Shown here piece after piece: positions 28,736 through 29,232 of a stretch of DNA of 32,000 bases. Position numbers and translations under genes: made by a program. Numbering within the stretch: position 1 is the first letter of the stretch; every line of letters starts with the position of its first letter. Source of the DNA: Candidatus Saccharimonadota bacterium. Lineage in GTDB: Bacteria > Patescibacteriota > Saccharimonadia > Saccharimonadales > UBA4665. Where the stretch lies: NCBI GenBank assembly GCA_016700375.1, contig CP065016.1, positions 60,001 to 92,000 on the forward strand, given 5' to 3'. The notes under the pieces are model-generated. The model saw only the letters and a program-made list of their open reading frames with translations, made no database searches and was not told the origin of the DNA.

Positions 28736-28764
28736 GGAGATCCTTCACGTTTGTTTAGGGTGAC
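28736..28764 (-). repeat. GTCAT-type hairpin (type III, GTCAC variant)
   Basis: The reverse complement reads gtcaccctaaacaaacgtgaaggatctcc. Confidence 0.55.
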
Positions 28765-28821
28765 ACGCGTACGTACTGCGCTGTAATCCTGTGCGTAGCG
28801 AAATATCGCATGGTTTGCGTC

Positions 28822-28850
28822 GGAGATACTTCACTGACATTCAGGATGAC
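28822..28850 (-). repeat. GTCAT-type hairpin (type III)
   Basis: The reverse complement reads gtcatcctgaatgtcagtgaagtatctcc. Confidence 0.6.
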
Positions 28851-28866
28851 GCAAAGGTAAAGGGTT

Positions 28867-28894
28867 GTCATTCTGAGCGAAGCGAAGAATCTTC
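28867..28894 (+). repeat. GTCAT-type hairpin (type III); left inverted repeat of the GIY-YIG cassette
   Basis: Reads gtcattctgagcgaagcgaagaatcttc and contains the GCGAAGC mini-hairpin core. Confidence 0.7.
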
Positions 28895-28899
28895 TGATT

Positions 28900-28908
28900 T
28901 GGTATTAT
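28900..28908 (+). promoter_or_regulatory. extended -10 TGgTATTAT 9 nt upstream of the GIY-YIG ATG
   Basis: Reads tTGGTATTATatttgcaccATG with no SD. Confidence 0.4.
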
Positions 28909-28917
28909 ATTTGCACC

Positions 28918-29232
28918 ATGATGAGGTCGTACTACGTATATATACTGACTAATCCTTCGCGCACAACCTTATATACGGGCATGACGAATGATTTAGAGCG
29001 AAGGGTATGGGAGCATCAATCCAAGCAAATTGATGGTTTCACTAAGAAATACAACTGTAGCTGCCTTGTGTATTACGAGGAGGCAGGCGATGCCTTAACG
29101 GCTATTGCTAGAGAAAAAGAAATCAAGGGATGGACTAGGCAGAAAAAAGAAAAATTGATTGACACGCTGAATCCAGACAGGGAAGATCTTTCGCTTTCGC
29201 TCAAGATGACACAGGTGAAGTCTGGTGAGTAA
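28918..29232 (+). CDS. GIY-YIG nuclease family protein (small URI-domain / YhbQ-like type)
   Basis: 104 aa with YYVYILTN...LYTGMTNDLERRVWEH and EKEIKGW blocks. The last 22 codons read through a GTCAT-type repeat. Confidence 0.85.
   Translation: MMRSYYVYILTNPSRTTLYTGMTNDLERRVWEHQSKQIDGFTKKYNCSCLVYYEEAGDALTAIAREKEIKGWTRQKKEKLIDTLNPDREDLSLSLKMTQVKSGE
29182..29210 (-). repeat. GTCAT-type hairpin (type III); right inverted repeat of the GIY-YIG cassette
   Basis: The reverse complement reads gtcatcttgagcgaaagcgaaagatcttc. It is about 24/28 identical to 28867-28894, in inverted orientation. It encodes DLSLSLKMT within the GIY-YIG ORF. Confidence 0.7.

Follow-up and report, generated by a model that had tools for sequence, protein, structure and literature searches.

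The GIY-YIG gene between rnhB and yraN in the window (by which we mean the whole 32-kb stretch of DNA that was analysed) very probably represents the Ssn family, that is, a putative single-stranded DNA (ssDNA) endonuclease gene located between facing copies of its own hairpin repeat, the unit having entered the rnhB-yraN spacer. This family was named by Chenal et al. (Nat Commun 2025, PMC11893778) for single-domain GIY-YIG proteins flanked by tagged hairpins, four of which were site-specific ssDNA endonucleases when tested in vitro; the same work showed the gene-repeat association and published a pattern for the repeats (SRM), HGTCWYN(0-2)YYVSBRHN(0-5)WNVSBRGN(0-2)RNCYNB, which is a search tool rather than a definition. 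The original prediction had taken the nuclease-plus-repeat system to be undescribed, which does not hold: the window unit is a further case of the published Ssn/SRM system, and the main value of the check is negative. Judged from their sequence, the dispersed repeats count among the "Ssn-related motifs" and belong to the superfamily of CGTC/TGTC-tagged REPs.

The nuclease gene and its flanking hairpins

The features of the unit, together with the other hairpin copies of the window, are collected in the table. That the ORF lies between an inverted pair of hairpins was confirmed both from the sequence and by a repeat search, which paired the two flanking copies with each other in inverted orientation (arms of 16 nt, 88%, and 15 nt, 87%); from tag to tag the unit spans 28867-29210 (344 bp). 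As had also been claimed, the ORF reads through the right hairpin, which lies within its 3' end, and it overlaps the yraN start (29225). The upstream hairpin consists of a T-GTC tag, a 5-bp stem (ATTCT/AGAAT), a tandem GA, a GCGAAGC core and then C. Both flanking hairpins belong to a mini-hairpin class, in which a 5-bp stem and tandem G-A pairs enclose a DNA mini-hairpin core, GCGNAGC. Folding of the two flanking hairpins is weak (-1.9 and -2.9 kcal/mol in ViennaRNA, not better than shuffles), and their stem pairing is accepted because of covariation across the family, not because of folding energy: the outer stem is an exact complement in 66% of copies, against 12.6% with permuted partners, and the inner stem pair, which the scan does not require, covaries too (GC 27, AU 9, CG 2).

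Table. Coordinates of the GIY-YIG gene unit and of the hairpin copies in the window
Feature	Position	Strand	Details
Upstream flanking hairpin	28866-28894	+	tGTCATTCTGAGCGAAGCGAAGAATCTTC, mini-hairpin class
Extended -10-like motif TGGTATTAT	28900-28908	+	Read from sequence; 9 nt before start codon
ssn-type gene, single-domain GIY-YIG nuclease, 104 aa	28918-29232	+	Pfam PF01541
Downstream flanking hairpin	29182-29211	-	Reverse complement tGTCATCTTGAGCGAAAGCGAAAGATCTTC; parts T-GTCATCTTGAGCGAAAGCGAAAGATC-TTC, GCGAAAGC core
Degenerate hairpin copy	28736-28764	-	Reverse complement GTCACCCTAAACAAACGTGAAGGATCTCC; GTC tag and C after stem kept, stem mismatch
Degenerate hairpin copy	28822-28850	-	Reverse complement GTCATCCTGAATGTCAGTGAAGTATCTCC; stem largely lost
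Facing hairpin doublet (9866+, 10041-)	9865-10042		10041- with 23-nt loop insert; 9866+ fits SRM pattern
Facing hairpin doublet (16989+, 17072-)	16988-17073		Upstream of dnaE
Facing doublet of NTS-like copies (20778+, 20840-)	20777-20841		Both copies fit SRM pattern
Tandem hairpin pair (25556+, 25596+)	25555-25623	+	Beside IS3-like remnant; 25556+ fits SRM pattern

Two other elements of the prediction stood in part. The two additional copies placed directly upstream of the unit are real but degenerate, being 73% and 64% like the downstream copy in register, in the same (-) orientation; for the second of them, which belongs to the same repeat family as the first, 73% to the reference copy is also given. 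Concerning the gene's own promoter, the extended -10-like motif is there, and TGCTATGAT occupies the same position in two relatives (L081 and L224), whereas a two-hexamer scan found no sigma-70 site at 28900-28908; the motif may be the promoter of the GIY-YIG gene.

The protein matches the Pfam GIY-YIG domain (E 5.6e-14, residues 5-78) and no other, and its AF2 model is one compact domain (pLDDT 89). Its last ~13 residues are the hairpin read-through, with no sequence otherwise beyond the catalytic core. The homology comparison used the 94-aa gonococcal homologue of SsnA, not NMV_0044, and gave 40% identity over 89 aa (pairwise, E 4e-23), a tblastn E of 8e-14 in a 7.3-Gb database and an hhalign probability of 99.8%, both E values with this homologue thus lying below the E < 1e-10 to Neisseria SsnA by which the paper assigns Ssn membership (in CDD, the family corresponds to cd10448). 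The gonococcal gene is itself flanked by NTS hairpins. Furthermore, Y8, Y19 and E66 are invariant in 21 homologues and align with the residues mutated in SsnA (Y6, Y17 and E64).

The suggested structural kinship to Slx1 is supported by the Foldseek ranking of folds, with UPF0213 first, Slx1 next and UvrC third, and the closest solved structures, both by sequence (E 1.4e-07) and by fold, are UPF0213/YhbQ (PDB 1zg2 and 1ywl) and the nuclease domain of Slx1. No function is named in the UPF0213 entries (the depositors' title is "Hypothetical UPF0213 protein"), and we know of no repeat association of UPF0213 proteins. Slx1 has a C-terminal zinc-finger domain and a partner, Slx4, and its substrate is branched duplex DNA. 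GIY-YIG is also a classic homing-endonuclease fold. No NCBIfam model matched the protein; of the libraries for defence and phage proteins, PADLOC yielded a single match, weak and partial, and PHROGs none.

Hairpin copies in the window and beside homologous genes

Earlier loose scans for the hairpin were too noisy (25-26 matches in the window, against 12-14 in shuffles), and a strict scan was therefore adopted (GTC, a stem starting with AT and ending with AT, then C), which returned 11 matches against 0.64 expected from shuffles. One match (27353-27392) looks like chance and was set aside, the remaining ten being the two flanking copies and the eight named by position and strand in the doublet and tandem rows of the table. 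The predicted dispersal of the repeat is thereby upheld, but the predicted number ("at least nine" further copies) is not, since there are eight clear copies elsewhere in the window, plus a possible variant at 12901. The first doublet lies within a MITE-like element whose inverted ends are 15 nt long (9832/10064), the second is identical in a related contig (L221), and the two copies of the third, separated by 13 nt between their stem ends, fold as a single long hairpin (-25 kcal/mol, z -8). At the strain level, the contigs with identical neighbouring proteins were short or identical, and thus uninformative on the presence or absence of doublets. At least three hairpin classes accompany a single ssn gene in the window, so that a one-to-one pairing of enzyme and repeat class stays hypothetical.

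The association between gene and hairpin extends across phyla. In a sample of 80 loci from 80 species of many phyla, the 100 bp upstream of the homologous genes contain 40 forward hairpins, and the 100 bp downstream of them 38 reverse ones. A TGTCAY tag precedes the gene in 69% of the loci and follows it in 71%; both sides carry the tag in 58% (78 homologous loci as the base) and at least one side in 85%, compared with 6% for random positions. The published values, 71% and 42%, are similar (PMC11893778). Seen from the repeats, 28 of the 29 +/- hairpin pairs with gaps of 200-600 bp contain the gene. Orthologous as well as homologous GIY-YIG genes carry facing hairpins on their flanks, in agreement with what had been proposed as a check. 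The base before GTC is T in 83% of the copies. In a sample gathered from hairpins and not from genes, 38 of the 52 adjacent +/- pairs lie 0-50 bp apart, which means that facing doublets dominate; in the same sample, the search for other cargo inside wide facing pairs found ordinary genes only.

Site history, proposed activity and rival explanations

A metagenome scan with RnhB gave 5 loci only, and PepN homologues were used to reach further relatives. The GIY-YIG gene occupies the same rnhB-yraN site in four of them (L082, L083, L088 and L081), with the upstream hairpin conserved in the first three and partly eroded in L081. The downstream hairpin is nearly unchanged in L081 and L224, though the surrounding coding sequence has diverged, and in L224 the two hairpins enclose a 27-codon remnant (MKSYYV followed by DTMNRNRKDLSTSLKMTQGES). 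The junction is empty, with rnhB adjoining yraN and no GIY-YIG gene, in L087, L089-L091 and L226-L227, which substantiates the predicted insertion between these two genes; in L225 the gene is absent after rnhB, and no yraN is called there. This series of filled, decayed and empty sites suggests that the hairpin-gene-hairpin unit arrived as one insertion. Hairpin density follows the gene among the relatives, as had been anticipated: loci that carry the gene at the site have 0.38 hairpins per kb, whereas a single hairpin was found in the 84 kb from six relatives whose junction is empty (L087 being left out and L225, without a called yraN, being counted). This contrast between lineages represents one evolutionary event and not many independent ones.

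In the mechanism that we propose, an ancestor of this sublineage of Saccharimonadales acquired the hairpin-gene-hairpin unit in the spacer, after which the gene was kept in four relatives and decayed in one, its stop now overlapping the yraN start. By homology with the four enzymes studied by Chenal et al. (PMC11893778), the protein would bind the hairpin only in ssDNA, with binding dependent on the C that directly follows the stem and cutting on the GTC that directly precedes it, and would cut a few nt 5' of the tag, on the strand with the forward motif; with the flanking hairpins facing each other, this would give one cut site per strand, just outside the unit. The ssDNA-specific cutting is thus taken from the literature, the SsnA tested there being the meningococcal protein, and recognition of the adjacent mini-hairpin class by the window enzyme is an extrapolation, given that the flanking hairpins miss the published SRM pattern. 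The earlier suggestion of a hairpin- or cruciform-cutting enzyme fares badly by the same comparison, as the characterized Ssn enzymes, which bind the hairpin in ssDNA only and cut a few nt upstream, cut neither cruciforms nor double-stranded DNA (PMC11893778). In the cell, the role of the protein may be the cutting of incoming or exposed ssDNA and/or the spreading of the repeats. Gene-less facing doublets could originate from such units via internal deletion. A wider reading, to which we give slightly less than even odds, is that the unit is or was a mobile cassette which arrived with its repeats and seeded gene-less doublets in this way and, together with this, that the mini-hairpin missed by the SRM pattern is the commonest class beside this branch of the family, in many phyla.

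An active selfish IS-like element, in which the hairpins are terminal inverted repeats and the GIY-YIG protein a transposase that moves the unit and the doublets today, is the strongest of the rival explanations, and we regard it as unlikely. The unit is indeed an insertion relative to related genomes, L224 carries an internally deleted derivative at the same site (as MITEs derive from transposons), a truncated second copy stands in tandem in S. meliloti, and the contigs of related strains break at the hairpin repeat, which indicates many copies; the IS-like architecture was noted also by the Ssn authors (PMC11893778). Against present-day movement, two GIY-YIG proteins of other organisms, both of them identical in many contigs, have one context each (P0079 in the 24 contigs read for it, P0026 in 17), and the gene of the window has been held at one site across ~20% protein divergence, with its stop overlapping the yraN start. 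No target-site duplication is visible in the sequence at 28866/29211, and the flanking hairpins were rejected as matched terminal repeats, since the two hairpins of one gene are no more alike (47%) than any two hairpins of the same locus (42%). In addition, GIY-YIG enzymes hydrolyse DNA, and to our knowledge neither covalent intermediates nor strand transfer are known for this fold.

Considerably less probable is that the hairpins act as RNA (as mRNA stabilisers, attenuators or terminators), their position beside a nuclease gene reflecting regulation instead of an enzyme-substrate relationship. [quoted passage not shown] Nevertheless, the hairpins matched no Rfam family at the gathering threshold or at relaxed E-values, T-runs are absent after the stems and a terminator-like site was called at neither flanking hairpin, while the copies occur in both orientations as facing doublets regardless of gene direction. 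The GCGNAGC or GCGAAAGC core has been described as an unusually stable DNA mini-hairpin (PMC13037366), and the tested SsnA binds ssDNA, not RNA (PMC11893778). Least credible of all is a free-standing homing endonuclease gene that cuts gene-less doublets and is copied in by break repair, for which speak the fold and the constant position of the gene inside a facing doublet (also the commonest gene-less arrangement), but the protein lacks the separate DNA-binding domain of GIY-YIG homing endonucleases (I-TevI, Seg), with nothing of that kind beyond the 95-aa catalytic core, its tested relatives do not cut double-stranded DNA (PMC11893778), and hairpin-rich DNA contains about one such gene in 946 kb (with 287 hairpins), a ratio at which doublets are clearly not being filled.

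Relation to known repeat systems and significance

Assignment to the Ssn family, our preferred reading, places such a unit in the Saccharimonadales, a small-genome lineage. Natural DNA uptake has been reported for Saccharimonadales, and in Neisseria it is the process modulated by Ssn. The window shares with the published systems a GIY-YIG protein that has one domain, about 95-104 aa and identical catalytic residues, a gene flanked by tagged hairpins (with HGTC preceding the stem and C following it) and the dispersal of these repeats as facing doublets; four window hairpins fit the SRM pattern (9865, 20777, 20814 and 25555, against 0.33 in shuffles). There are also differences: the host is a Saccharimonadales genome (Patescibacteria), a group absent from the text of the Ssn paper (PMC11893778), and both flanking hairpins miss the SRM pattern, having a 5-bp stem, a tandem GA and a GNA or GAAA loop, with the GTC before the stem and the C after it still present. 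Among the 80 loci, the pattern matches none of the 292 hairpins with five-bp stems.

Of the CGTC-tagged REPs, among which are Neisseria dRS3 and Rickettsia RPE-4 and RPE-6, Di Nocera et al. (PMC3733652) concluded that they "apparently lack a dedicated transposase". Repeats of the window resemble them in the unpaired CGTC/TGTC tag, the 8-9 bp stems starting A-T then T-A, the loops of 4-5 nt, the CCA-type tail and the prevalence of head-to-head dimers, features found in six window copies (9866, 16989, 20778, 20818, 25556 and 25596). The gene-flanking copies, with their 5-bp stems (shorter than in any of the four described CGTC families) and CTTC tails, fall outside those families. The Ssn gene fills the dedicated-enzyme gap noted for CGTC-tagged REPs, thus linking the 2013 puzzle to the Ssn family; the text of Chenal et al. 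(PMC11893778) has no mention of "Nocera".

The analogy with REP/RAYT systems (REPtrons, REPINs) holds, although it had already been drawn by Chenal et al. (PMC11893778). Both have a nuclease gene between two inverted copies of a tagged hairpin, repeats arranged mostly as facing doublets able to fold as one long hairpin, many repeats for few genes, and ssDNA recognition. In contrast, RAYT is an HUH/Y1 transposase with a covalent intermediate and its tag is GTAG, whereas the window protein is a GIY-YIG protein and the window tag is GTC(AT), with no sequence relationship; the resemblance is one of architecture only.

Two observations may add to what is known, namely the mini-hairpin class beside the gene that the SRM pattern misses and the series of filled, decayed and empty sites. 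The latter bears on the present or past mobility of the unit, a question raised in the Ssn paper (PMC11893778). If the former class is indeed the commonest beside this branch of the family, the reach of Ssn-repeat systems has been underestimated, including in Patescibacteria. The class would also widen the enzyme-site pairs testable as ssDNA tools. Two smaller observations concern Neisseria: TGTCATTCCCGCGAAGGCGGGAATCCAG differs from the Neisseria NTS consensus in the first base only, and at the gonococcal ssn locus, unlike in the window, the flanking repeats are in the opposite orientation.

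The GIY-YIG unit and its predicted family

The 104-aa GIY-YIG gene lies in a housekeeping region of a Candidatus Saccharimonadales genome, its stop overlapping the yraN start (see the table). Its product finds its best match, at 97% identity, in a GIY-YIG protein of Candidatus Saccharimonadales. In the homologue alignment the GIY-YIG catalytic set is among the invariant residues; among solved structures, the UPF0213 proteins 1zg2 and 1ywl come nearest to the window protein in sequence, and the AlphaFold model (pLDDT 89) resembles, in this order, 1zg2, Slx1 and the UvrC N-terminal domain. 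The family is large, with 9,761 clusters (50% identity) reaching E <= 1e-10.

The original prediction knew of no description of such a nuclease-plus-repeat system; Chenal et al. 2025 (PMC11893778), however, reported that single-domain GIY-YIG genes of CDD family cd10448 (“Ssn”) adjoin such hairpins, named NTS in Neisseria (CGTCATTCCCGCGMAVGCGGGAATCYRG) and, in their general form, SRM (Ssn-related motif). SRMs were found near 71% of homologous genes (on both sides in 42%), and 81% of genomes containing over 200 SRMs also encoded a homologue. SsnA binds the hairpin solely in single-stranded DNA and cleaves it a few nucleotides upstream, with the C after the stem critical for binding and the three bases before it critical for cutting. 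In N. meningitidis the enzyme reduces transformation by DNA that carries the NTS (PMC11893778). Over 89 aa the window protein shares 40% identity (E 4e-23) with a 94-aa gonococcal SsnA homologue, whose gene is itself NTS-flanked, and the residues mutated by Chenal et al. align with conserved residues of the window protein. From this homology and these aligned residues, the window unit is a member of the Ssn family, with a function predicted from sequence. The REP/RAYT analogy previously drawn was already in print, as those authors made the same comparison and likened NTS-ssnA-NTS to an insertion sequence (PMC11893778).

A promoter of its own had also been claimed for the gene: an extended -10-like motif (TGGTATTAT) does lie 9 nt 5' of the start codon, with TGCTATGAT at the equivalent position in two relatives, but a two-hexamer scan returned no promoter at this site.

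Features of the window and of related loci (window positions unless a locus is named)
Feature	Position	Strand
rplS	26919-27548	
L19 C-terminal extension (about 55 residues, Ala/Glu/Lys-rich), repetitive GCC/GAA/AAA coding stretch	27380-27548	
Membrane ORF	27621-28070	
rnhB	about 28058-28729	
22-nt inverted repeat in rnhB CDS	28418-28469	
Two degenerate hairpin copies	28736-28764, 28822-28850	-
Flanking hairpin tGTCATTCTGAGCGAAGCGAAGAATCTTC	28866-28894	+
GIY-YIG ORF, 104 aa	28918-29232	
Near-copy of the tGTCATTCTGAGCGAAGCGAAGAATCTTC hairpin, within ORF 3' end	29182-29211	-
yraN	29225-29590	
pepN	29580-31958	reverse
Real hairpin copies outside the locus (strict scan)	9866, 16989, 20778, 25556, 25596	+
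Real hairpin copies outside the locus (strict scan)	10041, 17072, 20840	-
MITE-like element with NTS-like doublet	9829-10067, 20752-20876; L081 5596-5720	
Possible variant hairpin GTCACAAGCTGCGTAACAAGCTTGTCCAT (in 3' part of ORF 12597-13016)	12901-12929	
Low-complexity dispersed repeats TCTTAACTCATA / CTCATGTCTCATG, intergenic	766-815, 5618-5651, 13076-13106, 25973-26034	
GGTATTT heptamer array and inverted partner, between two transketolase ORFs	1680-1753	
IS3-like integrase-core ORF; IS1595-family transposase ORF	24303-25610; 26093-26899	
Palindrome opening the empty spacer	L087 541-560	
Doublets and partial copies associated with ssn	L222 18530-19400, 15456-17252	
Tandem units	L223 19660-20480	
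ssnA with flanking NTS	L228 1340-1960	

The two transposase-related ORFs lie just 5' of rplS and are both missing beside rplS in the related contig L083; the tandem hairpin copies at 25556 and 25596 adjoin the IS3-like remnant. The rnhB inverted repeat (CGTGAAAGCTCCGACCTTTCAC / GTGAAAGGTCGGAACTTTCACG, 95% complementary, 8 nt apart) is unrelated to the GTC-tagged hairpins.

History of the rnhB-yraN site

Three relatives (L082, L083 and L088, with GIY-YIG proteins 97-100% identical to the window's) carry the gene and both hairpins at the rnhB-yraN junction, and L081 (CP064992.1; 79%) has the gene at the same place with the downstream hairpin nearly unchanged. In L224 (PepN 79%) both hairpins and the -10-like motif enclose a 27-codon remnant, MKSYYV/DTMNRNRKDLSTSLKMTQGES, about 74 internal codons having been deleted. 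Empty junctions, as expected of the insertion originally proposed, do exist in relatives: L087 (PepN C-terminus 95%, YraN 84%) has a 73-bp spacer and no gene, and rnhB adjoins yraN, again with no gene, in L226 and L227 (PepN 70-73%) and in L089, L090 and L091 (RnhB 55-58%). L225 (PepN 75%) also has no gene 3' of rnhB, and its 347-bp gap contains no called yraN. As a series, these filled, decayed and empty sites give direct comparative evidence for arrival of the unit in a single insertion, and they show that a doublet (a facing +/- hairpin pair) can be what remains after gene loss. Right after the rnhB stop, the L087 spacer opens with a short palindrome, aTCATGCTATAGCATtATC; this looks like a GTCATGCT...AGCATC hairpin that has collapsed, and may represent a footprint.

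Hairpin density follows the gene, as had been anticipated: strict matches (GTC, stem starting AT and finishing AT, then C) number 24 in 62.8 kb of loci with the gene at this site, 4 in 22.6 kb of L224 and 1 in 84 kb of the six relatives that have an empty junction and a contig long enough to be useful, a contrast that is strong but reflects essentially one lineage event.

Association of gene and hairpins across bacteria

Homologue alignment A1 was used to collect 80 loci from 80 species of many phyla, containing 373 strict hairpins in 1.16 Mb, with 40 forward copies in the 100 bp upstream of the gene and 38 reverse ones in the 100 bp downstream. By the tag alone, TGTCAY occurs upstream in 54/78 loci and RTGACA downstream in 57/80; both sides are tagged in 45/78 and either side in 66/78, compared with 6% at random positions in the same loci. 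Of the facing pairs spaced 200-600 bp apart, 28 of 29 enclose the gene, and many homologues carry translated hairpins as N- or C-terminal tails (SLRSK, AQDDK, ILRFAQND, VILSAAKNL). In the reverse direction, 105 viral-contig loci gathered by exact hairpin pattern held 287 hairpins in 946 kb and only one such gene, with gaps of 0-50 bp in 38 of the 52 adjacent +/- pairs. Taken together, the gene-first and hairpin-first counts indicate few genes, many repeats and a basic unit that is the facing doublet.

Flank orientation is not fixed across the Ssn family: in N. gonorrhoeae (L228) the NTS copies point opposite to the window's hairpins, with a reverse NTS upstream of ssnA and a forward one right after its stop. 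No sign of present-day mobility was seen: two GIY-YIG proteins from other organisms, each identical across many contigs, occurred in one context each. In S. meliloti (L223; CP090106.1, 3.72 Mb, titled plasmid pSymB) a tandem duplication of hairpin-ssn-hairpin plus a 125-bp spacer lies between gltA and lpxB; of the gene, the first unit retains just the 3' end (the last ~25 codons) between its hairpins, and the surrounding 40 kb contain no further strict hairpin. In a Planktothrix agardhii plasmid (L222; NZ_LR882964.1) an ssn gene and several doublets lie inside a DISARM operon, with doublets also within an annotated MmeI-type CDS. Full doublets near this ssn are bordered by 2-3 tandem partial copies of one hairpin's left half (TGTCATTCTGAG plus 11 nt) and, on the opposite side, by matching partial copies of its partner's right half, a symmetry suggestive of breakage or of template switching within the loop.

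Repeat classes and their anatomy

Pooling the window and the fetched loci gave 671 strict matches, of which 277 form a major class, T-GTC-AT-YCY-GA-(G/A)C-GNA-G(C/T)-GA-RGR-AT-C-TC, with both GA dinucleotides invariant and the middle triloop base free. The outer stem covaries when pairing is not assumed beforehand (exact complement downstream in 66% of 482 TGTCATNNNGA sites, against 12.6% with permuted partners). The inner pair, left free by the scan, covaries as well (GC 27, AU 9, CG 2). The core GCGNAGC, or GCGAAAGC in the downstream copy, fits DNA mini-hairpins that are unusually stable and under-predicted by standard energy models (PMC13037366), which may explain the weak ViennaRNA energies of both hairpins flanking the window gene.

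The strict scan gave 11 matches in the 32 kb (0.64 in shuffles), one of them chance-like; the copies outside the locus are all intergenic, mostly as facing pairs with the tag outermost. A second class combines 8-bp stems with loops of 4-5 nt (e.g. TGTCATTCCCGCGAAGGCGGGAATCCAG); the window holds several hairpin classes and one GIY-YIG gene. These 8-bp-stem hairpins agree with the CGTC-tagged REPs defined by Di Nocera et al. 2013 (PMC3733652), which often carry the tag TGTC, have 8-9 bp stems beginning AT, 4-5 nt loops and a CCA tail, form head-to-head dimers in most cases, count Neisseria dRS3 and Rickettsia RPE-4 and RPE-6 among their members, and, as those authors concluded, “apparently lack a dedicated transposase”.

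The published SRM pattern matches 4 window hairpins (0.33 expected), neither hairpin flanking the window gene, and 0/292 five-bp-stem hairpins in the 80 loci; the sampled family branch thus seems, albeit not with certainty, to have as its main partner a repeat class missed by this pattern. The text of PMC11893778 mentions neither Patescibacteria, Saccharibacteria nor 'Nocera'.

The window's NTS-like doublets are nested in a larger MITE-like element bounded by inverted 15-nt ends, GGTTTTGAGAYTCAG (4 sites, 0.14 expected), and hence might be moved by a different enzyme. The two window copies of this element differ in inter-hairpin spacer (about 13 nt vs about 100 nt), and one hairpin has a 23-nt loop insert. 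Finally, GTCACAAGCTGCGTAACAAGCTTGTCCAT has the family layout (GTC, 7-bp stem, loop, CCAT tail) apart from a stem that begins with AC, and may represent a variant copy within a gene.
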